Positions 48,664-64,000 of a DNA stretch of 64,000 bases are shown piece after piece. The position numbers and the translations under genes are program-made. Under the pieces are notes generated by a model. It saw only the letters and a program-made list of their open reading frames with translations, did no database searches and had not been told where the DNA came from. Positions within the stretch are counted from its first letter, which is position 1; every line of letters starts with the position of its first letter. The stretch is taken from contig JAERTG010000100.1 of the NCBI GenBank assembly GCA_016845065.1, forward strand, positions 107,360 through 171,359, written 5' to 3'. This stretch comes from Fidelibacterota bacterium (lineage in GTDB: Bacteria; Fidelibacterota; UBA8477; JABMPR01).

Positions 48664-48704
48664 TTTACACTCCTGATTTTGTTTTTTTGTGAATCTGAAA
48701 AAAC

Positions 48705-49892
48705 CTATTTCTCTTCCAATTCAACACGATACAAAAGAACAGCATTGTGAATATGAATTGCAAATAGATCTTTTCCAATTTGAGATAATTTTGGTAATGT
48801 AGTTGTCCAGCTCCCAAATGAGCTGCGATGGGCGATCTGTCCCGTTTTACTCACACCTTCCAGCTCGAAATTTCGGTAGGCCTGTACCCCACTCTCAGTA
48901 AAAAAAGGTTCATAACGTATATAGAGGAACAAACCCCAGTTGGCGAGATAGTCAGCATCACTGATGGTAGATAAATCAATGGGGTGGTAACTTGAAATAA
49001 GCGAACCGTCTCCAAGATTAACAACATTCAAGTCTTTTTCGGAGACAACAAATGCCATCTCTCGTCCAAGTGAACTAATCTCCCAGGTCTTCCAGGGGAA
49101 CTGGGCCATGATTCGTTCTCTATTAAATAGAGTCAGGTTCGACTCAAAACCGTCATGAATCTCCAGAAAGTAATAATCTGTGCCTGGCACAGGTTCAAGA
49201 CCAACAAGTCGTCCCGGGACACTTACAGGGTTCGTCAGCAATTTGTCATGATTCCAGAGGTGAATATCGACAATTGACATGGAGTCGGGCTCGTCGGGCA
49301 TTAGGCAAGAGGAAGCCGTAATGAATTCATTCCGGTTAATCAACTTTGCCATCCTGAGATTTATTCCACATTTATCTTGATCACCGGGCACTACATTCTC
49401 CAAATAGAGTAGCGTGTCCTCATTGCCCAGCTCGAGAATCCAGGGTTGATCTTCCTGTGTGAGTAGAATCGTACCGTGAGTCGTGAGCTTTGAATTGAGT
49501 TTTCCCTCGCCCAAAGGGACACCATGAACCAGTGTGTAGTCTGGATTACCCTGATAATCATAGACCTGAAATGAGTAGAGTCTCTGGGGATTAAATGCAT
49601 CGATTGACTCGTTCTCCTGAATCAACACAAAGCTGGAAAGATCCTGATTTACTTTGAACTTATCATTTGGTGTGCGGTGGATTTGGATGACATGGTTGCC
49701 AAGACTGTCATAATAGGAAATCTGATTCTCGGTGATGGTATACATGATGGGAAAACCATTGGTGTTTGACCTGAATATGACCTCTTCAAGAGGGGTGTCA
49801 AATGTCCATTGGGCATATGGCTCAATATGCAAGACATCAGCTCTAGCAAGTTGTAGCAAAGTTAAAAAAAATACGAGATACCTAATTATCAC
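48705..49892 (-). CDS. Secreted hypothetical protein (395 aa)
   Basis: N-terminal signal peptide. No recognisable domain. Lies in the T9SS-linked operon. Confidence 0.5.
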   Translation of the reverse strand: MIIRYLVFFLTLLQLARADVLHIEPYAQWTFDTPLEEVIFRSNTNGFPIMYTITENQISYYDSLGNHVIQIHRTPNDKFKVNQDLSSFVLIQENESIDAFNPQRLYSFQVYDYQGNPDYTLVHGVPLGEGKLNSKLTTHGTILLTQEDQPWILELGNEDTLLYLENVVPGDQDKCGINLRMAKLINRNEFITASSCLMPDEPDSMSIVDIHLWNHDKLLTNPVSVPGRLVGLEPVPGTDYYFLEIHDGFESNLTLFNRERIMAQFPWKTWEISSLGREMAFVVSEKDLNVVNLGDGSLISSYHPIDLSTISDADYLANWGLFLYIRYEPFFTESGVQAYRNFELEGVSKTGQIAHRSSFGSWTTTLPKLSQIGKDLFAIHIHNAVLLYRVELEEK

Positions 49893-49899
49893 GGCTCAC

Positions 49900-52041
49900 C
49901 TATTTAAGCAAAACTATTTTTTGTGTCTTACTGTGTGCTTCGCCTTGAAGCAGCTGTACAAAATAAGCGCCGCTAGGGAGACTTATCCCATTATTATTTT
50001 TTGCATTCCAGGTCCAATGATAACTTCCAGGTATATCACTCCCCAATTTTGCATCAACCACCTGACTACCACTGATATCATAAATGAGTATTCTAGCACC
50101 AGAGTGCTGATTCAAATGGTACTCAATATTGACTGAAGCGTTAAATGGGTTCGGATATATTCTAGATATGGACATTTGTTGCGGCACTTGAGTATCTCTC
50201 AGGTCACTGGTTCCATCGAAGTACTGGAGGACACGGCCAACCAGCTCAGCGCGTTGAGTCTCTGTGTCAATGGTTTCGAAGGCCAAACCCATGACAAACG
50301 TTCCTGAGCTATTATCCAGAAAGCTCACTGCTGCATTCAAGCCATTCCCATATTGAAGGGCTATTTCTCCATTTGATGATACACCAAAATGATCAGGCCA
50401 ATCCTCTTCATAGGGACTGGTTCCATAATTAAAACTGATATCAGAAAAGTGAGGACCTACACCATTCACGGAGGGGTGATTACCATCATCACCCAGGTAG
50501 GTTATGTGCAAGGTTTCGTTCAAAAAAGCAATATCACTAGGAGATCCAACACTGAGATCATAGCCAATCTCTGCTCCAGACGCAAACAAGTAGCCACCTC
50601 CACCCAGATATTCAGAAATTACATTTTGCTCAGATGAGCTAAATGTTTCAGATGTTCTGCTATCATCCCCTAGAAACCAGAATACTGATGAGTAATCTTC
50701 GAGACTCTGAGCTTCTGTCACCCATTCATTGCTAGCCGATGCTATTGCGGCATCTGAACCGCTATTCACAATTGCTTCCGAATAGTATGTTGCGAAATCA
50801 TGTTGGATCGAGGTCCATGAACCATTTGTGCGATCAAAACCATCTACTATGAGAATTGTAGGTTGGGCGGCACTAAGACGTGCCCCATATGTGTCTGAAT
50901 ACCCACTACGATTCGGAATGGGTGCAGTATCCACTGCCAATAATCGAAATTGGATATATGAGTTTTCCGGAAATTCTTCTACCGTAAAACTAGTCAAATT
51001 CGAAGTGAGAATATCCGGCCCGTGATTCGAACTCCAGGTTGTTCCATTAAAAGAGAATTCCAGAATGTATCCACCAAGATCAGGATCATTCGGGCCTTCC
51101 CATTCCAGATATAACTGACCATCTGCGTTGGGTCCTACATAGGTGAAGTTGGGTTGACCGGGTGGAAGTAAGTCAACATCACTGAGTTGAACACGGACAT
51201 AGGTCGTATCCCAATTGTCGCGAGTATCTGAGCTCATGACAGATATGACATAGGGACCTGGTTCATAAATTGTACAGTCGAGATAGTCATTTGCTGTGAT
51301 TCGATTGGTGACAATATATCTGTATATACTCGTACTGGAGCCAGGCGCATAAACTCGGTTGATGTTTGAATTGGAATACAGCTCATCAGCTTCGAACCAA
51401 AAATGTGGTCCACGTAAAACTTCAGACGTGTCTGATGAGTGTAATGCCCATCCAATAGTGTAGATGCCGTTGTTCATATCAATACTGGACCATAGATCTG
51501 TTGTGTCAGCTGCCTGTGCGATAATATCCACATGTCCGCTGAGTGTTACTCCAGGAAAAGCTGCAGAGCTACCATCTCTAACAAATTGAATGATTGGAGA
51601 CCGGGGATGATAGGGATCCACAAAAGGTGTGAGTTTCCCCGGTAAAAGTGGGTTACCGGTGGGGTGTCCGCTTGCACCACCCCCATAGTTAAGATGAATA
51701 TGAGCATAACTGTCTGTATGACCCACCACTGCTCCCTGAGCGACGGTATTTCCTACTTGAAGTCCTGCCAGAGGAATTACATGGACATAGGCAAAATCTT
51801 CGACACGAATCCAATCCGACCCAATACCAGTCACGGTGCCAGCCATGATGCTCAGGGCATTTTCACCAGGAGCTAAGGGCATATCGGTACCATTGTGAAA
51901 ATGGTCCCTGTCTTCTCGGCATTCATCAAATGTAGCAGATATGCGATGTTGTTGATCCATGGGTGCCATGGGCCATGGGAAGTTGTTTATCTGAGCCATA
52001 AGACTCAGAGGCAGCAGAATAAGAAGAGTTTTAAGTGGCAT
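49900..52041 (-). CDS. Secreted M23/LytM-family metallopeptidase with FN3-like domain and canonical T9SS C-terminal sorting domain
   Basis: M23 motifs (HNGTDMP...AG and AHIHLNYG). FN3-like block (PPGQPNFTYVGPNADGQLYLEWEGPNDPDLGGY). C-terminal domain of about 85 aa (IYPNPFNASVNIEY...GAYFVQLL...KIVLLK) matches the T9SS type-A CTD pattern. Confidence 0.8.
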   Translation of the reverse strand: MPLKTLLILLPLSLMAQINNFPWPMAPMDQQHRISATFDECREDRDHFHNGTDMPLAPGENALSIMAGTVTGIGSDWIRVEDFAYVHVIPLAGLQVGNTVAQGAVVGHTDSYAHIHLNYGGGASGHPTGNPLLPGKLTPFVDPYHPRSPIIQFVRDGSSAAFPGVTLSGHVDIIAQAADTTDLWSSIDMNNGIYTIGWALHSSDTSEVLRGPHFWFEADELYSNSNINRVYAPGSSTSIYRYIVTNRITANDYLDCTIYEPGPYVISVMSSDTRDNWDTTYVRVQLSDVDLLPPGQPNFTYVGPNADGQLYLEWEGPNDPDLGGYILEFSFNGTTWSSNHGPDILTSNLTSFTVEEFPENSYIQFRLLAVDTAPIPNRSGYSDTYGARLSAAQPTILIVDGFDRTNGSWTSIQHDFATYYSEAIVNSGSDAAIASASNEWVTEAQSLEDYSSVFWFLGDDSRTSETFSSSEQNVISEYLGGGGYLFASGAEIGYDLSVGSPSDIAFLNETLHITYLGDDGNHPSVNGVGPHFSDISFNYGTSPYEEDWPDHFGVSSNGEIALQYGNGLNAAVSFLDNSSGTFVMGLAFETIDTETQRAELVGRVLQYFDGTSDLRDTQVPQQMSISRIYPNPFNASVNIEYHLNQHSGARILIYDISGSQVVDAKLGSDIPGSYHWTWNAKNNNGISLPSGAYFVQLLQGEAHSKTQKIVLLK

Positions 52042-53213
52042 TACCGGCTTATCTCAAGCCATTCATAGTTCGTTCCTATGAAGAATCGGTCACCATCATT
52101 TTGAACTTGAAATAGTTTGGGAAAACGGGGATCGATTTGTACATCGGTGTTTTCTAGAGACTGAGGAAAAAAGATTTGTGCGAAGTGTGTATTTCTTTTG
52201 GCAAAGAAATCTGCGGCAACACGAATGATTGCTACCTCACCGCGGTTGTTAACTGACAATCCTAAACAAATGCGATTATTGTTGTCAAATCTAATTTTTT
52301 CAACTCGTTTGAAGTTCAGATCAAACAGCTGAATGTATTCATGACTGCTAAGGACTGCGAGATAGCGGCCATTGGCAGATAATTTAAGCTCATGACCATA
52401 ATTCTCATTATTCCAGAGCATCTTCCCATCACTGGTAAGTTCAACAATCATGGGTTTCATTTCCTGATCAACTGCGGAATAATCGTAGCCACTGACGAAG
52501 AAGCGTTGATTTTGAAAAACCAATTTCTGCAAATAGGTAAATGGTAAATAAGCAGTTTTCTGTTCACGACCGTTGCTGTTTATGCGAATAAACAGAGATT
52601 TTCCAGCTGGACCACCATTAAATCCAGGTCGTTCAAGTAATATGTAGCATTGATCCCCAATCCACTGCAAGAGAACATTGCGCTCCATACTCATCTCCCC
52701 ATCATCTTCATACAACTGTCCTTCTGAGATGAGGTTACCAGATTCATAGAACCAGATCAAAGCCTTTACTGGATCCACGAGGGCGAGGATGCCCTTATCA
52801 GATATTGCAGATACCAGCGGTTTGAGATCTGCATCAGAACCTCGATTTACTGTATAAAGCAATTCGGAGTGATCATCCAACACGAAATAGTCTGAATACC
52901 GTTTGTTGTTTTTTATTTCACCCAAATCCTGGAGGCGTGAAACAAGTCGATACTCCCCATTTGGTGAGAGGGTAATTGTGGATTCTGGATCATAAGCAGA
53001 TATTCTTCTAATCGATTGATTATCAATGGAATACTTAGCACTACTTGAAGTATAATATAGTGGACGTCCATCCACCGATACCCATGAAATAGCGGCATCA
53101 TCGACTTCAATAATTTGATCTATCTGGAATGCAGATACCCCCCCGGATAGCATTATCAACAGAGCTAATAAAGACGCATTGCTAATTTTCATTGGCTTCC
53201 TTCTCTCCTTCAA
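52041..53213 (-). CDS. Secreted hypothetical protein (390 aa)
   Basis: Signal peptide (LLALLIMLSGGVSA). No recognisable domain. Stop overlaps the M23 gene start by 1 nt. Confidence 0.5.
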   Translation of the reverse strand: MKERRKPMKISNASLLALLIMLSGGVSAFQIDQIIEVDDAAISWVSVDGRPLYYTSSSAKYSIDNQSIRRISAYDPESTITLSPNGEYRLVSRLQDLGEIKNNKRYSDYFVLDDHSELLYTVNRGSDADLKPLVSAISDKGILALVDPVKALIWFYESGNLISEGQLYEDDGEMSMERNVLLQWIGDQCYILLERPGFNGGPAGKSLFIRINSNGREQKTAYLPFTYLQKLVFQNQRFFVSGYDYSAVDQEMKPMIVELTSDGKMLWNNENYGHELKLSANGRYLAVLSSHEYIQLFDLNFKRVEKIRFDNNNRICLGLSVNNRGEVAIIRVAADFFAKRNTHFAQIFFPQSLENTDVQIDPRFPKLFQVQNDGDRFFIGTNYEWLEISR

Positions 53214-53243: not shown

Positions 53244-54284
53244 TTAAAATTCCAAACTTATACTAAAGCGACGAGTATCATTCAATATTCCCCAATCACC
53301 ATAGGCAAGATCCAGTTTAAAACGAAGGTTGCGGGCGATAAGAAAATTTACACCTCCCCCAACATTAAACCCTTCTGGAGAAAGGGTGTTACCATCTTCA
53401 TCCACATCATCAAGATAGAATGTCTGACCAGCTCTGAGGAAAGCCAAATCCATTAGATTGAATTCTCCACCAATACTAACACTCTCAGAATAGTTGTTGG
53501 GATGAGCAGCATCTACAGCCAGTGTGAGCTTACCGTGACGTATTTTCACTACATCTGCCGCCAAACCAACCCTGAAAGTTAGAGGAAGTGACCAGTAGTC
53601 TGTGTCGAGGTGGGCATTGATGCGGGAATTGTTACCTTCCTGATCGGGAGCAACATCAACCTCGATCAGTGTGTCATCCCCCTTCAACTGCATTTTACCA
53701 CCGAAGTTTGACACGCTCATGCCAACTCTCAGGTCTCTGAACTGAGTTTTGAAGGTGGTTCCGAGATCCACAGCTACTGAGCTGGCTTTCATATGCCAGA
53801 TACGTTCCTCAATATATTTCACATTAGCGCCGAAAGTAAATCGATCCGTAAACTTTCTGCCCCATCCTAGGGTTGCCGATAGATCAGTAGCTCCGAAGCG
53901 TTCTCCAGTACCATCTGGTTGGTCAATCGTGGTGACATCCATTTCTTCAATGGAGATACTGGTCAGGGCTACACCAACAGTACCCAAATTACCCATGGGG
54001 AAGGCAGCTGATACATTGTTAAAACTAATACCTGCCAGCCAATTGGTCTGGATAAAACTCACTTCGCTCTTATTCATCAGAGCCAAGCCACCTGGATTCC
54101 AGTACAATGAATGGACATCATCAACTACAGCAACATACGCATTACCCATAGAAGTACCCCGAGCTCCGATTCCAATTTCCAGGAATGACGCAGCTGTGGT
54201 ACCCCGTTTTGAGACAGCCTGTGTGGTTGTGACCAATAATAGGAAGATGATTGCGATACGAATGGAGTTTCTTGATAGTTTCAT
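53244..54284 (-). CDS. PorV/PorQ-family (FadL-like) outer-membrane beta-barrel protein, copy B
   Basis: After the signal peptide: GTTAASFLEIGIGARGTSMGNAYVAVVDDVHSLYWNPGGLA, the conserved N-terminal block of T9SS PorV/PorQ-type proteins. Beta-barrel-like alternating pattern and a C-terminal aromatic (F). Paralogous to 62569..63615. Starts 9 nt after the stop of the giant CTD protein. Confidence 0.6.
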   Translation of the reverse strand: MKLSRNSIRIAIIFLLLVTTTQAVSKRGTTAASFLEIGIGARGTSMGNAYVAVVDDVHSLYWNPGGLALMNKSEVSFIQTNWLAGISFNNVSAAFPMGNLGTVGVALTSISIEEMDVTTIDQPDGTGERFGATDLSATLGWGRKFTDRFTFGANVKYIEERIWHMKASSVAVDLGTTFKTQFRDLRVGMSVSNFGGKMQLKGDDTLIEVDVAPDQEGNNSRINAHLDTDYWSLPLTFRVGLAADVVKIRHGKLTLAVDAAHPNNYSESVSIGGEFNLMDLAFLRAGQTFYLDDVDEDGNTLSPEGFNVGGGVNFLIARNLRFKLDLAYGDWGILNDTRRFSISLEF

Positions 54285-54293
54285 GTCAACCTC

Positions 54294-57200
54294 CTACTTA
54301 ATCACTGCAAATTTGCTGACATGATTACCAATTCCAGGTGCTTCTACGTGGTATAGATACACGCCATAGGCAATCTCCAATCCATCTCTAGACAGGAGAT
54401 TCCAGGATTCAGCACCATCCCATATTTCAGCATTATGATTGATGGAATTCACAAACTTTCCACTCAGGGTATAAATACTGATCGTACATTCCGGAGGCAA
54501 ATTGATGAAGTCTATCTTGCGCACTCCCCGTCCAGAATCATAAAGATGCTGTGGTTCCCAGGAGGCTGTTACCACATAAGGATTTGGTACCACTGAGATA
54601 TCCTCCAGAAGGCTTGAGGGAGCGTTCACATCGATATCACCACCTGTGGCAGAGAAGGTCAGCACATCATGAGCAGAGAAGGGTTTTCTCGACTTGACGA
54701 TGAATTGATCACCAGGTTCTGGAGCCCAGTTATCCCATACACCATCCTTCAATCTTGCTACTGAATTTTCAGTACCAATCCAAATCGCTCCATCGTCAGT
54801 TTGATTTATGCACTGAAGAAGGTTAGTGCCAAATGCGGCTACATCATCCTTGGTATAGGCAGAGTAGACGGTATCAACACCATTGAAGTCAATTACGTTG
54901 TAACCTTTTTTGGTAACAAGATGGACTTTTCCATCTGAGGCAACTATGAGATCATTCACTTTTCTATCTAGTATGCTATCTTTATTTGCATAGGTAACAC
55001 TATCCAGGGCAAAGTTGTAGATTACCAACCCTTTGTCCTTAGTACCAATAAATAGTTCGGCCTGGTTGGTAGCGAGGGAAATAATTTTATCAGTTGGTAG
55101 GTTAGAATTAGTCTTGTTTAAATACCAGAAGCTAGTATTGGATGGTTGGTAAAACTCAATTCCTTCTGATTGGGTACCGACAACAATAGTTCCATCATCC
55201 AGAGAAATCAATTCTGTGGATGCATTTTGTAATACACCTGTCATTACTGAGTCTCCACTAATGGTATTGAACTCCCCATTATTGAAATTGACAGAGGTGA
55301 TTGCATTTACACCCCAAATCTCTCCTATTTGAGTCTGGTGCCAATCCCATCGAAAGATCCCTTTTGATGAAATGGACCATAAAATGCCATTTTTGTCCTC
55401 CAAAACTCTATGAAATTGGAGATATTCATTCTTCACACCTTCAGAATTATCAGCATCAACTACAAGATCAATTTGGTAATTCTGCCAACCATATTGATTG
55501 TGAACACTCAATCCTCCCGTGGATCCCACCATTATGTTGCCAGAAATATTATAAGATATATCCAAAACATTGTTGGTAAGTAGACCCGCATCATCTTTTA
55601 TGTTACCCCAGGTTTCTCCATCATATAAACCAAGGCCCTGACTTGCAGTGGCAAAAACAGTAAAGTCATCCCATTGAGCAATACGATTCACATTACCAAC
55701 CTTGGACTGACTCACCATTTTCCAGGTCACACGATCTTCGCCACCAGCTAAAATGGTGGGATAAATCACAGAACCAGGTCTGAGGGTCGTATCCGACAGA
55801 GTCTGAGCTATTAATCGCACTGGAAGATCATTGGTGAGATCTCTCATGCTGAATGCCATCCGTTTGTTCAGATAGATAGATGTATCAGTAACTGTCGGAT
55901 TGATGGTCAATTGATAATCAAAGGGAACTAATTTGAGGTCAACGTTATTATGTCGTTCCGGATAGAGATTGATTTCATAGTTCAAACCGGTTCTCATCCA
56001 CCCAGTTTCCTGTTCATTCAATGCAATCACATCATTGGTAACATTTATCTTGAATCCCTCTGTGACCATACCTCGTCCCTCTCCTGAAAAGTTGGTCTGG
56101 TCTGAAAGTAATACATTACCAGTGGTCAAGTTTGTAAGCTGATAAGAGCTTGTGTGGCGCGGAACCTCATCAACATCATTGGCATCAAAATGAGGCTCAC
56201 CTGCATCTGGCATGGCGTTGGCCTGTGTTCCGTTTGGATTTGTCAACTCGTTCCAATTGTCCTGGTTGGGATCACCACCCAGATTTAGCTCCGTTTCAGA
56301 GCAGGGATTCAATGGATCCCCTGTTTCAAATGCATCATTACAGCCATCAGATCCAAGATCATCATAGATTTCTTCCCACCCATCCCATAAACCCAATGTT
56401 GGATACAGTGTGAAGGTCGTATCTGGAATCTCCACAAAATATTGGAGGTAAGTCGAATCGTCCACAGTCACGGTCTGCGTGTCAACGAATGAGGTGATAA
56501 AATTGAACCCGTTAAAAATAAAATTAGTCGTACTCTCGGTAATCCCCTGAAAGAGATGAGCCCCGGGAAGTGTAAATATCAGGGTATCAGAATTTGGGGG
56601 GATCATCATCTCCAGCGTACTATTCAGAGTAATAGTAGTTGAGTCATCAGTCCAGGTGCGCCAATCACCATCATTGTCGATACCATCTTCAGACCAATCC
56701 CTGAATGTGATCTGGTATTGATCCATATTTCTGATTTTGGATGGATCAACCACTTCAATTTCCAGTGATCCTGTTCCCAGCGTTGTGGCTGCATCAGCTA
56801 CAATTTCAGGTGGTAAATATGCCATTGCAGGTGCGTTTGGCACTGCAACACCAGTATTGATACCGAATTTTACGGGAATTCCAGAAGCATTGATCTCTAT
56901 CTTCTTGGTACACTCAGAAGGTGTAATGGGTGGTCTCAGTTCAATTTCAGAAATCCCGCGATCATAAAAATCATAGTCGAACCCATAATCATAGGCTACA
57001 ACTGCGTAATAATATGTTTGCCCGTTGTTAACCGTCGTATCTGTCCAGGAGTGCCTTATACCAGTATCAGTACCCATATCCAGGTGAATACCGTTCAGAC
57101 CATATGGATGTGGACCTACCAGGCCATCTGCCTTGTCAAATTGAGCAATGGGCTTGTTAAAGGTCTGATTGCCATAAGTATCCGTAATATTCCAGACCTC

Positions 57201-59096
57201 ATTGAAGGCTGGGTCAGTAGCACGATATATGCGATAGCCCTCAAAATCATTTCCATAGATGGGATCCAGACTGTATTCGGCCTTATCATCCCAATATAGG
57301 GTGACCTGCCCATCTCCAGGAACCACGGTGAGTTTTGGGAGGTTTGGTGGTTTAGCAAAATTATAGTCACTATTGTAAATCTGCTGCATGGTCTCAGAAT
57401 TACGCAAGATATCCTCATAATCATTTCCGAATATGAGTGCTACAGCAAATTTTCGTTCCTCTTGCTGGGGAAGCTCAAAGTAGGCTGATCCATACATGAA
57501 GGTTAGATCAACAGTTTGGGAAATATCTGTAAAAGACCCTGGTGATAGTTGTTCCCAGGCATTTGCATCACGGGTAAGATCAATACCCGGGTATGGACCG
57601 GCTGTAAAACTTGTGAGACCAATCTGGTCAGATTCATCATTATCTGTGTATTCAAAATTTGGCTCACCTGGATCGGGTACGCCATTTCCTTCGGTTCCAT
57701 CTGCATCAGGACCTAGATATTCACCGAAATTCGGTCCAACACCATCAGAACCTGTATCATCCACATAGGGGTCCCAATCACCATCATTGTCAATCCCATC
57801 ATCTTGACTTTCGTCAATCATTCCGTCTTCATCATTATCACGACTATCCAGGGGGTTTCCTGGTGATTCGAGATATTTCCAACCAAAATATGCTGGAACA
57901 TATCCACCATCATTTACGGTCCAAAGGTCATGATCCCACTGATAAACAATGTCATTTACGGTATCAAACCAGGCATCATCATCCCGTTGATCTCCATCAT
58001 CACCAACATCAGCATCCCCATACATGCCAAAGATGAATTTTTGATAATCCCAGGAACTGATATTCTGGATCCAGTAGGTAAAAATCAAAATATCTTCTGC
58101 AGCTGGATGTGCCCATTGATAACCTCTTGCAGAGACATCTACACCGAGACCTCTTTTAAGACCATCATAGATGTAATAGTCCATATCCTGATCTGAAGTG
58201 TTGGCACGACCAGCAAACGTTTTGATCAGGATTTGGTTATCGTTTATAATTTCTTCGATTTCATACCACTTATCATCAAGAACCCGAACTACATCCGGGC
58301 GTCGTCCATCTCTTGGATCAATTGCGTCTGATCGAGCAACATCCCGTACCAGACCATCAAATGTGGTATTCATATCCGTAAGGATAGCATAATCATTGGA
58401 GTCAGAATTGGCCAATTGAACAATACTTCCAGAATGAAGCACAGTATCTACCAGGATGGGATAGTGTTTAAATTCATCATTGTTAAAGTCATCCATGTGG
58501 AAGTAGCTTTCCTGATCTGCGCGACTGTACTGACCGTACTGACCGGCCCATCTGTTATCCCATTCAGAGGAAAGGTTTGCCCAACTATCGGGCCATGAAA
58601 GACTATCGTCACTCATTGCTATGAGTGAATCATTTGTATTCGCATATCCCAGTCTCGGTTCAAACTGCCAGAGATAGTCATCTGATGTTGGCTTGTCGAT
58701 GGAGCTTGAGGGCATTCCCTCACTGACAATATGCAGTGGAGCACCGTTGGCATTTGGGGTTTCTGCAGCCACGAGTGGTGAGAATTCTGCAAGGTATGAA
58801 CGTCCGCTACCAATAGGATAGATACCACAATCATATCTTCCTGGTGAGTTTCTCCAATCCGCGATGGATCCATAATTTGTGAATCTCGTGAGAATTTTAT
58901 TGCCATTGTGTACACCAAGCCTGCGATTACCATGTCCATTGGCGTCAGTACCCAGGGTACCCACTTTTCTCAATATATTTGGTTTGGGATGAATGTTTTT
59001 ATCTGAGCTCGCTGCTTCCAGGACAAAGGGAACTGCCAGGAAGACCACCATCAGTATTATAGTCTTATTGATTTTCATTGCTAGCCCTTGACTCAT
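54294..59096 (-). CDS. Giant secreted T9SS cargo protein (1600 aa): Asp-rich Ca-binding repeats, FN3-like domain, Cys-bracketed D-rich module, Reg_prop-type beta-propeller repeats, variant C-terminal sorting domain
   Basis: Signal peptide. TSP3-like DxDxDG repeats (DNDEDGMIDESQDDGIDNDGDWDP...) at about aa 360-495. FN3-like block at about aa 585-705. A GSDGCND...PCSETELNLGGDPNQDNWNELTNPNG module at about aa 905-980. Two-component-regulator-propeller-like repeats at about aa 1140-1490. C-terminal domain VVPNPYVVTASWEP...ISIYTLSGKFV...AYGVYLYHVE...KFAVIK. Confidence 0.8.
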   Translation of the reverse strand: MSQGLAMKINKTIILMVVFLAVPFVLEAASSDKNIHPKPNILRKVGTLGTDANGHGNRRLGVHNGNKILTRFTNYGSIADWRNSPGRYDCGIYPIGSGRSYLAEFSPLVAAETPNANGAPLHIVSEGMPSSSIDKPTSDDYLWQFEPRLGYANTNDSLIAMSDDSLSWPDSWANLSSEWDNRWAGQYGQYSRADQESYFHMDDFNNDEFKHYPILVDTVLHSGSIVQLANSDSNDYAILTDMNTTFDGLVRDVARSDAIDPRDGRRPDVVRVLDDKWYEIEEIINDNQILIKTFAGRANTSDQDMDYYIYDGLKRGLGVDVSARGYQWAHPAAEDILIFTYWIQNISSWDYQKFIFGMYGDADVGDDGDQRDDDAWFDTVNDIVYQWDHDLWTVNDGGYVPAYFGWKYLESPGNPLDSRDNDEDGMIDESQDDGIDNDGDWDPYVDDTGSDGVGPNFGEYLGPDADGTEGNGVPDPGEPNFEYTDNDESDQIGLTSFTAGPYPGIDLTRDANAWEQLSPGSFTDISQTVDLTFMYGSAYFELPQQEERKFAVALIFGNDYEDILRNSETMQQIYNSDYNFAKPPNLPKLTVVPGDGQVTLYWDDKAEYSLDPIYGNDFEGYRIYRATDPAFNEVWNITDTYGNQTFNKPIAQFDKADGLVGPHPYGLNGIHLDMGTDTGIRHSWTDTTVNNGQTYYYAVVAYDYGFDYDFYDRGISEIELRPPITPSECTKKIEINASGIPVKFGINTGVAVPNAPAMAYLPPEIVADAATTLGTGSLEIEVVDPSKIRNMDQYQITFRDWSEDGIDNDGDWRTWTDDSTTITLNSTLEMMIPPNSDTLIFTLPGAHLFQGITESTTNFIFNGFNFITSFVDTQTVTVDDSTYLQYFVEIPDTTFTLYPTLGLWDGWEEIYDDLGSDGCNDAFETGDPLNPCSETELNLGGDPNQDNWNELTNPNGTQANAMPDAGEPHFDANDVDEVPRHTSSYQLTNLTTGNVLLSDQTNFSGEGRGMVTEGFKINVTNDVIALNEQETGWMRTGLNYEINLYPERHNNVDLKLVPFDYQLTINPTVTDTSIYLNKRMAFSMRDLTNDLPVRLIAQTLSDTTLRPGSVIYPTILAGGEDRVTWKMVSQSKVGNVNRIAQWDDFTVFATASQGLGLYDGETWGNIKDDAGLLTNNVLDISYNISGNIMVGSTGGLSVHNQYGWQNYQIDLVVDADNSEGVKNEYLQFHRVLEDKNGILWSISSKGIFRWDWHQTQIGEIWGVNAITSVNFNNGEFNTISGDSVMTGVLQNASTELISLDDGTIVVGTQSEGIEFYQPSNTSFWYLNKTNSNLPTDKIISLATNQAELFIGTKDKGLVIYNFALDSVTYANKDSILDRKVNDLIVASDGKVHLVTKKGYNVIDFNGVDTVYSAYTKDDVAAFGTNLLQCINQTDDGAIWIGTENSVARLKDGVWDNWAPEPGDQFIVKSRKPFSAHDVLTFSATGGDIDVNAPSSLLEDISVVPNPYVVTASWEPQHLYDSGRGVRKIDFINLPPECTISIYTLSGKFVNSINHNAEIWDGAESWNLLSRDGLEIAYGVYLYHVEAPGIGNHVSKFAVIK

Positions 59097-62000
59097 ATTG
59101 AAGTTGAGAAACCGATTCGAATCTGTCTAGGAGACGAATAGTAGCTCGGTCTGTTTAAATATTCTTCAATCGTATTGTAATTCCAGCCAGGATCCTGGGT
59201 AGTATAGGTTGGAATAAGTGAATACCCAGAGCGACCTGTATCCGAATAAACAGAGACTTCGTTTCTTATATCGAGAAGGTTATAAACATTGGCCGTAAAT
59301 CCTATTTCTCGACCTAGCAGCATAAACTTCTTGGAGATTCTCATATCTACGTTGATTTGGGTTGGTCGACGACCGCTGTTCTCGAAGCTACCTCCCACCA
59401 GATTCAATGAAGTCGGGGTATAAGGTAATCCAGATCCATACTCACCAATGAAACTGAGGTTGACCTTATATGGTAGTTTAAACAAAACAGAGCCATTGAG
59501 TGTGTGCCGTTGATCCCAATCCAGATAGACTAATTGCTTCTCTGTATCACGATTATTCTGAGCATCCCAAAATGCAGATCTTGGGTCAGAGGCATTACCT
59601 TCAGCTACACTGTAGGTATAGTCCAGGTTAGCTGAAAATCCTTGTGAGAGTCTTTTTGTCAAGGAAACGGTAATTCCCTTTACGTTTCCATAATCACGGT
59701 TGACATAAACTCCATATACCTCATTAGTGTAGGTCGTGACAATCTTTGAACCCAATAAATTACTGATATCCTTGTAGAATCCAGTTACATCTACACCTAT
59801 ATCCTCTCCAAACTGCTGCTGAAACCCAACCTCGTACTGGACGGTCTTTTGAGGTTCCAGGTCTGCATTACCCATAGTAGCAGAAGCAATGCTCCCTCCT
59901 GCCGGCACTTCGAAATCAGGATTTATATAGAGATAGGTATAACTCGGTATTTGGAAGAAGTGGCCATAGGAGAAGTGCAAGACACCCTTATCGGTGATTG
60001 GATAGGCCATGGCCAGTCGAGGACTGAATTGTACCTTCTTGGAAGCCTCCTTGAACCAGTACTCCATGCGATCTTCCAGAGTTTTTGCGTTAGTATCAAC
60101 CGCTTCATCCTCTGAAATCTGACCATTCCCGTCTATATCATGAAATCTGTTAACCAATTTAAGGGGTGATTTCGGATTAGGATCTGATGGATCCGAAGGT
60201 GTCACACCATCTGGATCAAATATTTCGTATCTCAACCCTGCATTCACTATCATATCCACAACTTCGATCTTATCCTGGAGATAAACTGCAAACTCAGAAG
60301 GATTCTTGACCATCTCACTATATGTTGGTGTTGTGGGGCTTACATCGGGTGTAAGAATTTGCGGTGTGAAATATCCTTCGGCTGGATCGTAAATGATGGA
60401 AAAGTCCCTTCGAAAGATGCTGGTGTATTTGTATTCAAGACCACCTTGCAGCTGATGCATTTTATTTATCTGGTTGGTCATATCAAATTTGATCAATTGA
60501 CTACGTGTCATCCGATACAGGTGGTATTTAGAGATACCACCCAGGTTGAATTTCTGACCGACTGAGGCATCAAGAATATTGTTGTCATTCTCATAGTCCT
60601 CAAGATTGTTGGAATCATAAGCAGTATCTGCAGGCATATCAAAATCGGAGATATTGAACATGTTCGACATAAATATCTGATTCCAATTGACATCATAAAT
60701 GGGTTCATAATAGGATCGACCCAAATTCCCAAGAATTGACGCCTTGACACTATAGAAGGCCTCGGGGCTGAGTGTATGTTGTAGAACAAGACCTATATTC
60801 ATATTGGTCCCATAAGAAGTCGCTCGTCCCTCGGGCGTATATTTCCAGTTTAGCGAACTACTGTTGTAAGTTTCTGAACTTCCGTAAAGAACATTGAGAG
60901 AGAGTTTTAATTGTTGTGTGAAGCGATGTGTAAGTTTTCCCTGAAGGTTAAGACTCTTTGAGTTATATAGTGGCACTACGGCGTTGTCACCGCGCATATT
61001 CGTCCATTCCCCGTCCTGGTCCCCATCTATGTACCATTCACCACTCAAAGCGCCATTGCCATCCAGATCTTCGTAGGTTACCTCAGGAAAACCAACATCT
61101 GTATCGACGTCTGAATCCCATTCTCCATTGCCATTGTTATCTCGATACCAGGTGCCAGTGGCATTATCGAGGAATACATCTGGGTCGATGGGATAAACAC
61201 GATCACCACCATCCCATAGACCGTTTCCTGATTCACCACCATCTCTGATGTTATTGCCTTCTCCACCATTGGGATTGAGATAGAAGTCCCAATTATCTCC
61301 ATTGGGATCATCACCCAGGTTTAAGGGTACACTGGAGCAGCCTCCTGTTCCATTTTCATATTCATCGGGACAACCATCCTCACCATAATCGATATAATCA
61401 GAGAAATATTCACCATTTTCAATGGGCATGGAATTGGTGTTATCCCAGTAAAAAGAATCAGTATTAAATCGTCGCACACCATATAGACGACCAGCCAGAT
61501 CTTCATACCTGCCTGAAGTAAAAAATGATGTCGTCTTTGCCAGTCCAGGCACCGGTCCACTCATACTCCACTGGAAATCATGTCTACCCTGGGGCGTAAA
61601 GACATCAGGATTGGTTCCAAAAATGTCTACTTTAGAAATGTCGAGATCATCTTTTAAAGCCAGATCTCCAGGAATAATACCAAGATATATTTCAGGATCT
61701 GGAGATATATAGCGACCATAGCGATAGCTCAGTTCACCGGAATAATCACTCAAACTTCCATCCTTGGTGATGATATTGATAATACCTGACATGGCCTGGC
61801 CATATTCAGCGTTGAATGTTCCTGAAATAACCTGTAGTTCCTGGATGGCATTGTTTTCAATACCAACACCCATATTCTGACCGTAGGAGTTTGTGACTGG
61901 GATACCATCAATCAGGTAAGCAACTTCAGAGGATCGTCCACCGCGGATATGAATTGCCCCAGAGCCATCGACAACCACACCAGCTTGCAATGAGACAGCA

Positions 62001-62440
62001 GCCTGGAATGATTCAACGGGTAATGCTTCTAGCTCTGCCGAACTAATGTTGGACTGGGCATGTGTAATATCAGCTTGTATCATGGACCGATCCGCTGTAA
62101 CAGTAACCACATCTCCCTCGATAATACTGAGTGTCATCTGGACATCCTGGGTCGTGGTCAAATCAACCATGATGCGGATACCATCAATCACTTGTTCTGA
62201 ATAGCCAATCATGGAACAGCGAAGTTGATACTCACCAGGGGCGATATTCAGGATATAGAAATTACCGTCCATATCCGTCGCTCCACCCTGACCGGTAGCC
62301 GGCAAGAATACATTTACTCCAATTAGGGCCTCACCTGTACTTAGATCGGTAACCCGACCTGTCAATTTTCCTGCAGTTCCTGAGAACAGAAATTGAGCCC
62401 CAATCAATAGAATTAGAGATATACGACATAGATTTTTCAT
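59093..62440 (-). CDS. TonB-dependent-receptor-like outer-membrane protein (CarboxypepD_reg domain, plug and barrel) with a large Asp-rich insertion
   Basis: N-terminal carboxypeptidase-regulatory-like domain (GKLTGRVTDLSTGEALIGVNVFL...DGNFYILNIAPGEYQL), TonB-box/plug region (VVTVTADR...IDGIPV) and a beta-barrel-like C-terminal body. Insertion at about aa 350-480 (GEDGCPDEYENGTGGCSSVPLNLGDDPNGDNWDFYLNPNG...). ATGA overlap with the downstream giant cargo gene. Confidence 0.75.
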   Translation of the reverse strand: MKNLCRISLILLIGAQFLFSGTAGKLTGRVTDLSTGEALIGVNVFLPATGQGGATDMDGNFYILNIAPGEYQLRCSMIGYSEQVIDGIRIMVDLTTTQDVQMTLSIIEGDVVTVTADRSMIQADITHAQSNISSAELEALPVESFQAAVSLQAGVVVDGSGAIHIRGGRSSEVAYLIDGIPVTNSYGQNMGVGIENNAIQELQVISGTFNAEYGQAMSGIINIITKDGSLSDYSGELSYRYGRYISPDPEIYLGIIPGDLALKDDLDISKVDIFGTNPDVFTPQGRHDFQWSMSGPVPGLAKTTSFFTSGRYEDLAGRLYGVRRFNTDSFYWDNTNSMPIENGEYFSDYIDYGEDGCPDEYENGTGGCSSVPLNLGDDPNGDNWDFYLNPNGGEGNNIRDGGESGNGLWDGGDRVYPIDPDVFLDNATGTWYRDNNGNGEWDSDVDTDVGFPEVTYEDLDGNGALSGEWYIDGDQDGEWTNMRGDNAVVPLYNSKSLNLQGKLTHRFTQQLKLSLNVLYGSSETYNSSSLNWKYTPEGRATSYGTNMNIGLVLQHTLSPEAFYSVKASILGNLGRSYYEPIYDVNWNQIFMSNMFNISDFDMPADTAYDSNNLEDYENDNNILDASVGQKFNLGGISKYHLYRMTRSQLIKFDMTNQINKMHQLQGGLEYKYTSIFRRDFSIIYDPAEGYFTPQILTPDVSPTTPTYSEMVKNPSEFAVYLQDKIEVVDMIVNAGLRYEIFDPDGVTPSDPSDPNPKSPLKLVNRFHDIDGNGQISEDEAVDTNAKTLEDRMEYWFKEASKKVQFSPRLAMAYPITDKGVLHFSYGHFFQIPSYTYLYINPDFEVPAGGSIASATMGNADLEPQKTVQYEVGFQQQFGEDIGVDVTGFYKDISNLLGSKIVTTYTNEVYGVYVNRDYGNVKGITVSLTKRLSQGFSANLDYTYSVAEGNASDPRSAFWDAQNNRDTEKQLVYLDWDQRHTLNGSVLFKLPYKVNLSFIGEYGSGLPYTPTSLNLVGGSFENSGRRPTQINVDMRISKKFMLLGREIGFTANVYNLLDIRNEVSVYSDTGRSGYSLIPTYTTQDPGWNYNTIEEYLNRPSYYSSPRQIRIGFSTSI

Positions 62441-62474
62441 ACTAGTCTCGCCTTAGTTGTTACTGTTAGCAGCG

Positions 62475-62502
62475 TATATAAATAATTAAGGCACCTCTTC
62501 AA
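62475..62502 (-). promoter_or_regulatory. Candidate sigma70-like promoter for the TBDR-cargo operon (TTGAAG - 16 nt - TATATA)
   Basis: On the minus strand the -35-like TTGAAG maps to plus 62497-62502 and the -10-like TATATA to plus 62475-62480, about 35 nt upstream of the ATG at 62440. Weak evidence. Confidence 0.25.
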
Positions 62503-62568
62503 TATCCGCGGATACCTAAAAGATGCCTTGACTACTACTTACCTATAGTGAGGTAATCCCCTTAGGCA

Positions 62569-63615
62569 TTAAAAATACAAGCTTAGATTAAATCTTTGGA
62601 CATTGTTCAGACGCCCAAAATCAGCATAAGCATAGTCAAATCGTAATCCTGAGGCAGATCCAAATATGGGCAGATCAAATCCTGCTCCGAATGTGAAACC
62701 TTCCTCGCGAGCTTCAAGGTCAGAGGCTGCAAGACTGGTGTTGGTCTCAACAAAGGGTGATTTCCAACCCCCTCTTAGAAAGTATTTATCCAATATATTG
62801 AGCTCAGTACCGATATTGATTGATTCATAATTGTCATTTGGATGAATAGCATCTACTGCCAATGTCAATTTGGTAACGCCAACTTCAATCACATCCATGG
62901 CAACACCCACACGAAAGATGAGTGGTAAATCCCAGTCATCCAGTGCATAATCAACTGGAATAGCATCATTATTGCCTTCAAAGCCAGGTGCGGGGTCATA
63001 ACGTTCCAGAATATCCCGGCCGGACATCCTTAAACTCGATCCATAATTGGATATACTCATTCCGAGACGCATATCATTGAACTGGGTCCTGAACAGGGTA
63101 CCTACATCTACAGCCATAGCGCTAGCCCGGCTATGCCAGATGGTCTGCTGTATATATTTACCATTAAATCCAATCGAAAAACGATCTGTGAGTGATCTTG
63201 CCAGAGTTACCTGAAGCGCTAAATCGCTGGCAGTAAATTCCTCACCGGTTCCGTTGGGTTCCAGTTCAGTTGTCACAGGCATATCATCCATTGTTAAGGA
63301 GGTAACACTCAGACCAACAGTACCAATCCCATATAGAGGAAAAATAACACCCATGTAGTTGATGGCCACATCAGCAATCCAATTGTTCCGAAGGAACATG
63401 ATCTCGCCACCACCAGCCTGAGCAATACCAGCTGGGTTCCAATAGAGTCCTGAAGCATCGCGGCTCATGGCGACATATGCCTCACCCATACCAGTAGCTC
63501 GGCTACCAATACCTATTTTGAGAAATTGTGCTGCAGTCGTACCACCCTTGTATTGTCCAAAGCTCATTGAAACAGCGATTACAAGGAGCATGATCATTTT
63601 CTTCTGCATGGTCAA
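62569..63615 (-). CDS. PorV/PorQ-family (FadL-like) outer-membrane beta-barrel protein, copy A
   Basis: After the signal peptide: GGTTAAQFLKIGIGSRATGMGEAYVAMSRDASGLYWNPAGIA, plus a C-terminal FNLSLYF. Paralogous to 53244..54284 at roughly 40-45% identity by eye. Starts 5 nt after the stop of the upstream partial giant-protein gene. Confidence 0.6.
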   Translation of the reverse strand: MTMQKKMIMLLVIAVSMSFGQYKGGTTAAQFLKIGIGSRATGMGEAYVAMSRDASGLYWNPAGIAQAGGGEIMFLRNNWIADVAINYMGVIFPLYGIGTVGLSVTSLTMDDMPVTTELEPNGTGEEFTASDLALQVTLARSLTDRFSIGFNGKYIQQTIWHSRASAMAVDVGTLFRTQFNDMRLGMSISNYGSSLRMSGRDILERYDPAPGFEGNNDAIPVDYALDDWDLPLIFRVGVAMDVIEVGVTKLTLAVDAIHPNDNYESINIGTELNILDKYFLRGGWKSPFVETNTSLAASDLEAREEGFTFGAGFDLPIFGSASGLRFDYAYADFGRLNNVQRFNLSLYF

Positions 63616-63620
63616 TCTCC

Positions 63621-64000
63621 TTATTTAATCACGGCAAATTTGCCGATGGTTTCTGCGTTATCGGTTTCAACGTGATATATGTAAACACCATAGGCAACCT
63701 CCAGGTTATCCAGGTTCAATAGGTCCCAGGATTGAGCACCGTTATAGACAGACTCATGGTGTTCCAATTTTCTAACCAACTCGCCAGCCATGGTATAAAT
63801 CCGGATTGTACAGTCTGTGGGGAGGTTGATAAAATAGATCTTACGTTCTCCTCGTCCTGACTGCAAATATGGCTTTTGTTCCCAGATGGCGGCTGCCACA
63901 TAGGGATTTGGCACGACGGAAACTTTGTGAAGCTCGTTGGCAACTTTTTCAGCATCTTCTTTTGCAGCTGTGGTCTCATATCTGTAGACATCCCGGGAGC
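63621..64000 (-). CDS. C-terminal end of a second giant T9SS cargo protein (partial; continues beyond window)
   Basis: The reading frame is open to the window edge (...EDAEKVANELHKVSVVPNPYVAAAIWEQKPYLQSGRGERKIYFINLPTDCTIRIYTMAGELV...AYGVYIYHVE...KFAVIK). This C-terminal domain is clearly homologous to the CTD of the 1600 aa protein (54294..54600). Confidence 0.7.
   Translation of the reverse strand, partial: SRDVYRYETTAAKEDAEKVANELHKVSVVPNPYVAAAIWEQKPYLQSGRGERKIYFINLPTDCTIRIYTMAGELVRKLEHHESVYNGAQSWDLLNLDNLEVAYGVYIYHVETDNAETIGKFAVIK

Follow-up and report, generated by a model that had tools for sequence, protein, structure and literature searches.

A rare Cys-bracketed, Asp/Asn-rich module in a TonB-dependent transporter and the adjacent giant surface protein of Marinimicrobia

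Next to nothing is known about the cell-surface biology of the Marinimicrobia, a group of abundant but uncultured ocean bacteria. In a 64,000-nucleotide stretch of DNA from this group (the window), a gene for an outer-membrane barrel is followed by a gene for a giant surface protein (the cargo), and a preliminary description of the sequence had reported that both products carry a similar Asp-rich segment bracketed by cysteines. This raises the question of whether the two segments are copies of one module and, if so, whether their occurrence in adjacent genes reflects module exchange or a shared ligand or anchoring interaction of the two proteins.

Two copies of one module in adjacent genes

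The barrel gene (59093..62440, minus strand; 1115 aa) encodes a TonB-dependent transporter (TBDT) with a CarboxypepD_reg domain, a plug domain, and a 22-strand barrel. Its Pfam matches were TonB_dep_Rec_b-barrel (4e-23), CarbopepD_reg_2 (5e-16), and Plug (2e-10), the barrel and plug scores both being over the Pfam cut-off, and its AF2 model (pLDDT 75) matched YddB, FepA, PhuR, and PqqU in a Foldseek search of the PDB, all at an E value of ~1e-26. Upstream of the plug lies DVVTVTA (aa ~109-115), which by eye resembles a TonB box. The SusC/RagA subfamily model TIGR04056 reached 78.9 bits against an NCBIfam cut-off of 368, in a match confined to the N-terminal 230 aa. There was also a weak EF-hand_1 match at aa 767-779 (E=0.26), outside the module.

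The cargo gene (54294..59096, minus strand; 1600 aa) and the barrel gene share 4 nt, ATGA, where the former starts and the latter stops. The cargo comprises a signal peptide, a conserved N-terminal beta-supersandwich with a carbohydrate-enzyme-type fold, an FN3-like region, the module, a Reg_prop-type propeller, and a T9SS-like C-terminal domain (CTD). This CTD is highly conserved in the cargo family and common to the related module carriers P0286, P0322, and P0326; it matched CHU_C under the cut-off of 27 bits (14.6 bits, E=0.035), and NCBIfam TIGR04183 gave no match to it. The P0286 CTD likewise gave sub-threshold matches to FlgD_ig and Por_Secre_tail (25.0 and 17.6 bits, the cut-off being 27).

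The barrel module spans aa 349-404 (61229..61396, minus strand), with Cys357 and Cys368, and the cargo module spans aa 911-968 (56193..56366, minus strand), with Cys919 and Cys932. The strings quoted in the preliminary description are present as given, beginning with GEDGC at barrel aa 353 and GSDGC at cargo aa 915, and its approximate nucleotide ranges were correct.

These two segments are homologous, each being a copy of one ~56-residue Asp/Asn-rich module with two Cys. Composition-adjusted BLASTP of the barrel against the cargo returned a single significant HSP, with 29/57 residues identical (51%; E=4e-12), all remaining HSPs having E>0.5. An hhalign comparison of the two orthologue profiles aligned 56 columns with a probability of 99.4% (E=6e-22), and the homology ended at the module edges. 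Since both proteins contain further acidic stretches (cargo aa 417-491, barrel aa 405-487), a chance likeness between two low-complexity regions rich in Asp, Gly, and Asn had to be considered. However, the Smith-Waterman score was 150, compared with 37 +/- 7 (maximum 70) in 2000 shuffles (z=15.8), and the similarity is therefore not due to composition, nor can the conserved Cys, Trp, and Pro positions be called low-complexity. Together with the BLASTP and hhalign results, this rules out a chance likeness, and the homology claimed from the sequence alone was borne out. A six-frame regex scan of the window found DPNxDNW in these two ORFs only. Across 37 barrel and cargo modules, 17 of 63 columns were invariant. 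The module was kept in 26/26 barrel orthologues (P0001-P0026) and 29/29 cargo orthologues (P0121-P0149, with P0123 reading DKNQDNW), and it stayed conserved even where the overall identity of the orthologues had dropped to 47-52%.

An insert in loop L2 and a three-gene cassette

The barrel module stands at the head of a clade-specific insert of ~140 aa (aa ~345-487 from an alignment with short paralogues; 60980..61408, minus strand). The AF2 model places this insert between beta3 (304-316) and beta4 (493-506), with flanking periplasmic turns of 4-7 residues, i.e., in extracellular loop L2. Its remainder, ~80 aa long, is made up of beta-hairpin motifs of the DxDGxG type, such as DLDGNGALSGEWYIDGDQDGEW, and residues 413-490 were modeled at pLDDT 82-89. 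In an alignment of about 95 paralogous barrels (P0027-P0120), the module was missing and the insert had no counterpart. The module itself was modeled at pLDDT <50 with no regular secondary structure in the barrel; in the cargo, its pLDDT was 36-65 and its two Cys enclosed a small hairpin. No helix was modeled in either copy, both models being of too low confidence there for a fold comparison.

The cargo contains another, degenerate Cys-free motif resembling the module in its conserved N-terminal part (aa 443-482, YVDDTGSDGVGPNFGEYLGPDADGTEGNGVPDPGEPNF; 57651..57770, minus strand). Its matches to the module HMM were weak (iE 0.012-0.9) and fell in the C-terminal half of that model, and its D/G/E/P residues are invariant throughout the whole cargo family.

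Directly after the cargo gene lies a gene for a PorV/PorQ-family, 14-strand-type barrel (53244..54284, minus strand; NCBIfam PorV_fam 1e-59, 202 bits with the cut-off at 90), which is probably the cognate T9SS shuttle or anchor of the cargo. Of the 79 related loci in which the contig extends beyond the cargo gene, nearly all have such a gene next after it. Cognate PorV-like barrels hold specific T9SS substrates (PMC10202324), and the PorV-like partner here would hold the cargo at the cell surface. We found no description of this three-gene cassette, which is often tandem, in the literature searched. Its conservation in 79 species-level genomes merits a study of its own.

A second, paralogous cassette precedes the first in the window, represented by its PorV/PorQ-family barrel (62569..63615, minus strand; PorV_fam 6e-60) and the C-terminal 125 aa, a T9SS-like CTD, of its cargo (63621..63998, minus strand), whose translation matches the C-terminus of the upstream cargo in locus L087. 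The module of this upstream cargo lies beyond the window end. Cassettes are in tandem in L007-L022, L087, L089, and L090, and the upstream cargo has the module in every tandem locus showing the region (12 of L007-L022, plus L087 and L089). In three lineages, the cargo of the upstream cassette carries the module and its barrel lacks it. Both partners carry it in 14 fully visible cassettes, and neither does in ~75 related barrel-cargo pairs.

A mobile repeat among cell-surface proteins

The module consensus is phi-x-D-x-G-x-D-G-C-x-D-x-phi-E-D-G-x-G-G-C-x(6-14)-D-P-N-G-D-N-[WY]-D-x3-N-P-x-G-T-[EQ]-x-N-x3-D-x-G-E-P. The profile used for searching (A2; 63 positions, signature D-G-DGC-D-E-G-C ... 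DPNxDN ... N-G-N ... E) has the barrel and cargo copies of the window as its first two rows, and it scored 89.5 bits on each of the near-identical L087 orthologues of the barrel and the cargo. A search of 1.84 billion representative clusters with it yielded only 130 carriers, which have 1-11 copies apiece and belong to at least eight unrelated surface-protein families, assigned after masking the module. They include SprA (TIGR04189, 435 bits; SprA_N match), a PorV-type barrel, T9SS cargo with Por_Secre_tail/PKD, esterase-like proteins, and the families B and C'. The esterase-like proteins, which include lipoproteins of Myxococcota, and families B and C' have lipobox signal peptides, and their surface location is predicted from these signal sequences.

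Nearly all carriers are surface proteins. Outer-membrane barrels (TonB-dependent receptors, SprA, and PorV-like) have the module in extracellular loops, as one copy or as an array, and T9SS-exported proteins and predicted lipoproteins carry it too. This distribution shows it to be a mobile repeat that recurs in the cell-surface proteome of Marinimicrobia and of a small number of further phyla. The module represents a new extracellular family without a relative in Pfam, NCBIfam, or the PDB, and the suspicion that it might be a ubiquitous generic repeat did not hold; it is found in several unrelated proteins, yet it is rare. The expectation that such an insert would be unusual in a TonB-dependent receptor proved right, as only two receptor clusters among the 1.84 billion carry the module, the second being P0327.

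The two Cys of the module co-vary, with 243 copies having both, 19 neither, and 3 a single one, which makes a stabilizing disulfide plausible. Ca binding is likewise plausible from the invariant spacing of its D/N/E residues.

We consider it fairly probable (roughly 0.6) that the module is a surface element that is mobile, is stapled by a disulfide, and probably binds Ca, and that it was ancestral in the cargo lineage and was later gained by one barrel. The module would be old in the cargo lineage, being present in both tandem cargo paralogues, and distant long cargos, which are partnered with insert-less barrels, have a Cys-free partial module at the same place. A later copy may then have entered loop L2 in a single barrel paralogue. 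In a neighbor-joining (NJ) tree, the barrel modules and the cargo modules were each monophyletic (80% and 77% bootstrap, respectively), and the two were sister groups in the full tree, in agreement with a reciprocal nearest-relative analysis; the bootstrap of this grouping was only 33%, and it is therefore uncertain in which direction and from what source the module was transferred. The locus offers a clean example of a domain shuffled into an extracellular TBDT loop.

Possible functions and comparison with known systems

A fold nearly without secondary structure may underlie the module, with one disulfide stapling a short hairpin and regularly spaced Asp/Asn/Glu side chains holding two or three Ca2+ in the fashion of thrombospondin type-3 repeats. 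Its role would then be generic, that of a Ca-rigidified spacer or stiffener extending and stabilizing surface-exposed regions in Ca-rich seawater, and we do not infer a dedicated barrel-cargo contact. A structural Ca-binding bead is the most likely identity of the module, so that its value lies in annotation and surface-protein modeling, with little surprise. That both partners have kept it so strictly through a long divergence could indicate a more specific function than that of a stiffener.

Several other explanations for the shared module were weighed. The genes are adjacent and the two modules are each other's closest relatives, as would be expected of a recent gene conversion or duplication with no long-term function, but the modules are only 58% identical in nucleotides, use the same codon at 16/29 identical residues, and are kept in orthologues down to ~50% protein identity. 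Moreover, barrel-cargo module identity is not in excess within genomes (0.521, compared with 0.513 between genomes; permutation p~0.1). A recent copy within the locus is thus effectively ruled out, and the same comparison gives no signal of barrel-cargo co-adaptation. The latter bears on the idea that the L2 module touches the cargo module, for example by Ca-bridged homotypic pairing, and tethers the T9SS-exported cargo to the transporter, as SusD or a surface glycan-binding protein sits on SusC. Such docking would agree with the distribution of the module in the cassettes that have it in both partners or in neither, with derived features common to the two copies (LNLG and the Trp in DNW), with their reciprocal nearest relationship and strict conservation, and with the extracellular position of both (loop L2 in one, a protein with a T9SS-like CTD in the other). 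However, the co-occurrence traces to a single clade and so counts as one evolutionary event, the upstream cassettes of the same genomes have the module in the cargo only, and proteins without such a partner carry it as well (SprA, PorV-like barrels, and the Myxococcota lipoproteins). We therefore regard docking as quite unlikely, and its fuller form, in which the module is a Ca2+-dependent element seating a PorV-anchored, T9SS-exported giant binding protein on L2 of its own transporter, as very doubtful. If true, it would mean a SusD-independent nutrient-capture machine of TBDT, T9SS cargo, and PorV-like anchor in Marinimicrobia, with the common module as its specificity determinant.

It is also unlikely, on balance, that all copies bind one external ligand through Ca2+, such as LPS or anionic LPS, a capsule or S-layer glycan, or an anionic polysaccharide, which would make barrel and cargo co-localized or co-specific without contact. 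The surface location of the carriers, arrays of up to 11 copies that would suit avidity binding, and the carbohydrate-enzyme-type fold of the cargo N terminus would fit. Against this, no lectin or CBM similarity was detected in Pfam-A and PDB searches at E<=10, integral barrels have no need of anchoring, and the segment from the second Cys to the DPN motif varies in both sequence and length (6-14 aa), which argues against one conserved binding site. Of the two proposals in the preliminary description, module exchange fits the data and a ligand or anchoring interaction specific to this pair is not supported; a rare repeat family adorning many surface proteins provides no evidence of a private barrel-cargo link.

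In form, the module resembles the thrombospondin type-3 repeats (PF02412), including the bacterial TSP3-like repeats of OmpA-family proteins, which are likewise short, Asp/Asn-rich, Cys-bracketed, nearly devoid of secondary structure, single or tandem in extracellular proteins, and built on an N/D-P-x-x-D-x-D-type core. Both presumably wrap the chain around Ca2+ and lock it with a disulfide. There is, however, no detectable sequence relationship, and the module differs in its ~56-aa unit, in its single Cys pair per unit, and in its signature (DGC-D-x2-EDG-x-GGC ... DPNGDN[WY] ... NPxGTExN ... DxGEP). The thrombospondin type-3, cadherin-like, and dockerin-like families suggested for comparison, and EF-hand, Calx-beta, and RTX Ca-binding repeats, were absent from a Pfam-A hmmscan of both modules, which returned no family at E<=10; TSP_3 did not match the whole barrel or cargo at E<=1. 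A search of all PDB sequences with profile A2 (E<=10) gave only chance matches (ankyrin, YgjK, and a Kelch-like design), with no thrombospondin or COMP chain. The D-x-G-x-D-G-C-x-D-x-x-E stretch has the 1-5-9-12 acidic spacing of the 12-residue EF loop, and the rest of the L2 insert carries canonical DxDGxG...E loops, but the module has no helix-loop-helix and has Gly instead of Asp/Asn/Ser at position 3.

Among TBDTs, Escherichia coli BtuB has extracellular loops ordered by Ca2+ (the "aspartate cage"), and its Ca-bound entry 1NQG was among the fold matches of the barrel model. Both would place an acidic, presumably Ca-binding element in early extracellular loops, although the BtuB sites consist of a few Asp of native loops, unlike the discrete, transferable, presumably disulfide-bonded module here. 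At the level of the cassette, a CarboxypepD_reg-type TBDT beside a large surface protein recalls the SusC/SusD-type and T9SS cargo/PorV-like (PorZ-PorQ, SprB-SprF) pairings of Bacteroidota. It differs from SusC/SusD in lacking SusD and in having a T9SS-type protein, not a lipoprotein, as the partner. The cargo gene is followed by that of a probably cognate PorV/PorQ-family barrel, a kind of partner known for specific T9SS substrates (PMC10202324). The cassette of TBDT, T9SS-exported giant protein, and PorV/PorQ-like barrel is most likely a surface capture-and-uptake unit.

Homology of the shared block

Both sequence strings quoted in the preliminary description were found in the two proteins concerned, a TonB-dependent transporter of 1115 aa with CarboxypepD_reg, Plug, and TonB-dependent barrel domains (the barrel; 59093-62440, minus strand) and the adjacent 1600-aa surface protein (the cargo; 54294-59096, minus strand), at barrel residues 349-404 (Cys357 and Cys368) and cargo residues 911-968 (Cys919 and Cys932). 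A composition-adjusted BLASTP comparison of the two gave a single significant HSP (349-403 against 911-967, 29/57 identical, E=4e-12), with all remaining HSPs at E>0.5. A profile-profile comparison of the barrel and cargo orthologue sets aligned the 56 module columns and no others (probability 99.4%, E=6e-22), and the local alignment score of 150 lay 15.8 SD over 2000 shuffles, the maximum of which was 70. The two regions are thus homologous by formal alignment, and a composition artefact, excluded by each of these three comparisons, is refuted as the source of the similarity. Translated in all six frames, the window has the DPNxDNW core in the barrel and cargo ORFs only. The sharing of the module is therefore confirmed as real and well defined.

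The copying between the two genes was not recent, since the copies are 58% identical as DNA and do not share codons in excess, and their identity within a genome (0.521) did not exceed that between genomes (0.513; permutation p~0.1). Gene conversion is refuted accordingly. The module was present in 26/26 barrel orthologues (52-94% identity) and in none of the following 94 barrel homologues, which are 900-1040 aa long, and in all 29 cargo orthologues (47-100% identity) at residues ~930-950, one of which, P0123, has the variant DKNQDNW. Cargo relatives of ~1000-1150 aa had no module. Across the barrel and cargo copies, 17 of 63 columns were invariant.

A rare module family and its carriers

We failed to find any Pfam model matching the module at E<=10, TSP_3, EF-hand, dockerin, cadherin, and RTX included, so that the thrombospondin type-3, cadherin-like, and dockerin-like models named at the outset gave 0 matches; no PDB sequence matched the module profile. 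When 1.84 billion cluster representatives were searched exhaustively with the profile, no more than 130 proteins reached E<=1e-3, and many of these have 2 to 11 copies in tandem. These carriers were clustered with the module masked; unmasked, the repeats merged all of them into one component. The masked carriers were found to belong to unrelated families: the TonB-dependent receptor (TBDR) of the type in the window; a second TBDR (P0327) from Ca. Eisenbacteria/Fermentibacteria; the cassette cargo family together with further proteins of T9SS type that have matches to PKD and, below threshold, to Por_Secre_tail; the T9SS translocon SprA of Marinimicrobia (SprA_N; TIGR04189, 435 bits); a PorV-type barrel with 8-11 Cys-free module copies; an esterase-like family of ~700-800 aa, from Myxococcota among others; and two unknown families. 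Esterase-like proteins and members of the two unknown families have at their N-terminus a lipoprotein signal peptide followed by acidic residues. Three proteins (P0245, P0292, and P0256) were rejected as TBDRs, having joined the masked TBDR cluster via Asp-rich repeats only.

The window itself comes from a Marinimicrobia (Fidelibacterota/Neomarinimicrobiota) bacterium, as source names indicate. Outside the window, SprA translocons and PorV-type barrels of other Marinimicrobia (P0241, P0257, P0266, P0314, and P0352) carry 1-11 module copies, indicating that the T9SS machinery is decorated as well as its substrates.

The cross-family consensus reads D-x-G-x-DGC-x-D-x2-E-D-G-x-GGC ... DPNGDN[YW]D ... 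NPxGTExN ... DxGEP. Both Cys residues were present in 243 distinct copies, neither in 19, and a single one in 3, which is the distribution expected of a disulfide pair, and we infer a disulfide between them. The module is a genuine, rare, mobile extracellular repeat, and the module exchange proposed in the preliminary description is borne out by the homology of the two blocks and by its mobility among surface-protein families. Its presence in a TBDR-like barrel had been called unusual, and it is: only two TBDR clusters among the 1.84 billion representatives searched have it, and a transporter loop with a discrete transferable module appears rare.

Position in the barrel and neighboring acidic sites

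The barrel orthologues contain an insert of ~140 aa (residues ~345-487) in alignment, compared with ~30 residues in the short paralogues. In the AF2 model of the barrel (pLDDT 75), whose TonB-dependent transporter (TBDT) fold was confirmed by Foldseek (E~1e-26), the insert lies between strand 3 (304-316) and strand 4 (493-506), with adjoining turns of 4-7 residues, and by standard TBDT topology this model places it in extracellular loop L2. Among the fold matches was 1NQG, an entry for BtuB. That the membrane barrel has an insert was thus supported; the module itself was unstructured in this model and of low confidence, at pLDDT <50. In the cargo model, it was also of low confidence, with a small hairpin between both Cys residues.

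Several acidic segments lie nearby. The rest of the barrel insert (nt 60980-61228, residues 405-487) is modeled as short beta-hairpins with DxDGxG...E motifs, residues 413-490 having a pLDDT of 82-89. A long extracellular loop at residues 767-779 (nt 60102-60140) holds an EF-hand-like loop, DIDGNGQISEDE, with a weak Pfam EF-hand_1 match (E=0.26); its consensus DLDGDGxISExE is kept in the whole barrel family, short paralogues included. The cargo has an extremely acidic stretch at residues 417-491 (nt 57624-57848), DNDEDGMIDESQDDGIDNDGDWD...DGTEGNGVPDPGEPNFEYTDNDESDQ, which is of low AF2 confidence. Its D/G/E/N residues are invariant in 58/58 aligned family members. The stretch probably forms a multi-Ca site that belongs to the cargo family itself, and the C-terminal half of the module may have evolved from it.

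Tandem cassettes, history, and probable role of the module

The barrel and cargo genes form a cassette with a PorV/PorQ-family barrel (53244-54284), all on the minus strand. The barrel stop and the cargo start share 4 nt (ATGA, 59093-59096), which suggests translational coupling. Two features belong to an upstream cassette: another PorV/PorQ-family barrel (62569-63615, minus strand), which is the first PorV gene of the window, and the segment 63621-63998. The region 53244-64000 is a tandem duplication of the three-gene cassette, an arrangement also seen in loci L007-L022, L087, L089, and L090. In three lineages, the tandem cassettes are flanked upstream by a divergently transcribed gene for an FG-GAP/VCBS-type protein of ~940 aa that has a T9SS CTD (L087 1-218, L089 1-266, and L090 1-576), and L001 and L005 have similar genes close to the cassette. 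The same minus-strand gene run contains additional T9SS-related genes. Downstream of the cassette, 47605-53213 encodes unknown proteins of 390 and 395 aa, a 713-aa protein that has a T9SS type-A CTD, and a protein with a PD40 beta-propeller. These genes are syntenic in the orthologous loci L003, L087, L089, and L090 and may be part of the same surface system.

A scan of species-representative genomes gave 79 loci, among them ones from Marinimicrobia, Calditrichota, the 'FCB group', and MAGs that bear the labels KSB1 or Cytophagia, each with the complete cassette where the contig was long enough, in a single copy or often in 2-3 tandem copies when contig-end losses are allowed for. We found no description of this cassette, and nothing specific to the module, in the papers searched. 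Specific T9SS substrates are held by cognate PorV-like barrels (PMC10202324). The cassette context further includes a propeller of the Reg_prop type and a CTD that is T9SS-like. The cassette likely pairs a TonB-dependent importer with a capture protein that its PorV-like partner holds next to it at the surface, although this hypothesis concerns the cassette context and is separate from the module itself.

The orthologue clade holds two tandem cassettes. The upstream cargo has its own module subtype in every genome whose contig covers that region, while the upstream barrel lacks the module in three divergent lineages, those of the barrel orthologues P0001, P0020, and P0023, having 0-1 Cys and an L2 insert with DxNGDG-type motifs only. 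One such barrel (L087 494-4057) has a longer L2 insert with DxDGxG-type motifs only (DLNGDGVLSGDPFVDANHNGILDGEPYIDFNGN) and no Cys module. More distant ~1600-aa cargos, paired with insert-less ~940-aa barrels, have a Cys-free partial module at the equivalent position, and every cargo has a degenerate module-like motif (residues 443-482) in its conserved N-terminal part. The upstream cassette, the distant Cys-free copies, and the degenerate motif together indicate that the cargo lineage had the module first and that one barrel paralogue gained it. The nearest relatives of the cargo module were all barrel modules, and those of the barrel module mostly cargo modules. In an NJ tree, the modules of barrels and those of cargos each formed a monophyletic group (bootstrap 80% and 77%, respectively), and the two were exclusive sisters in the full-data tree, at a bootstrap of only 33%. 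From these sequences, a cargo-to-barrel copy would be the most parsimonious, though weakly supported, reading.

The anchoring interaction envisaged for the two copies was not supported. Within the orthologue clade, 14 loci have the module in both partners, and ~75 other barrel-cargo pairs have it in neither; the apparent co-occurrence traces to one clade. It is not obligatory, as the upstream cassette has the module in its cargo and none in its barrel. Other carriers lack such partners altogether, and comparison of within- and between-genome identity gave no signal of co-evolution or co-variation between barrel and cargo modules. Barrel-cargo docking as a dedicated role is thus quite improbable. 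Binding of a common external ligand by the copies is also unlikely, with nothing in its support. The module is most probably a structural bead of a generic kind that binds Ca. Its regular D/N/E spacing and absent secondary structure in the models suggest multi-Ca2+ coordination in a thrombospondin type-3 manner, and its role may be a structural one, as a spacer or a stiffener.

This uncultured phylum has a surface module and a conserved cassette, neither of them described in the papers searched. BtuB is a precedent for Ca-ordered loops in a TBDT. In its manner of working, the module would be most like thrombospondin type-3 repeats and EF-like Ca loops, but it fails every profile-based membership test, and we class it as a new family by sequence, within a general kind already known.
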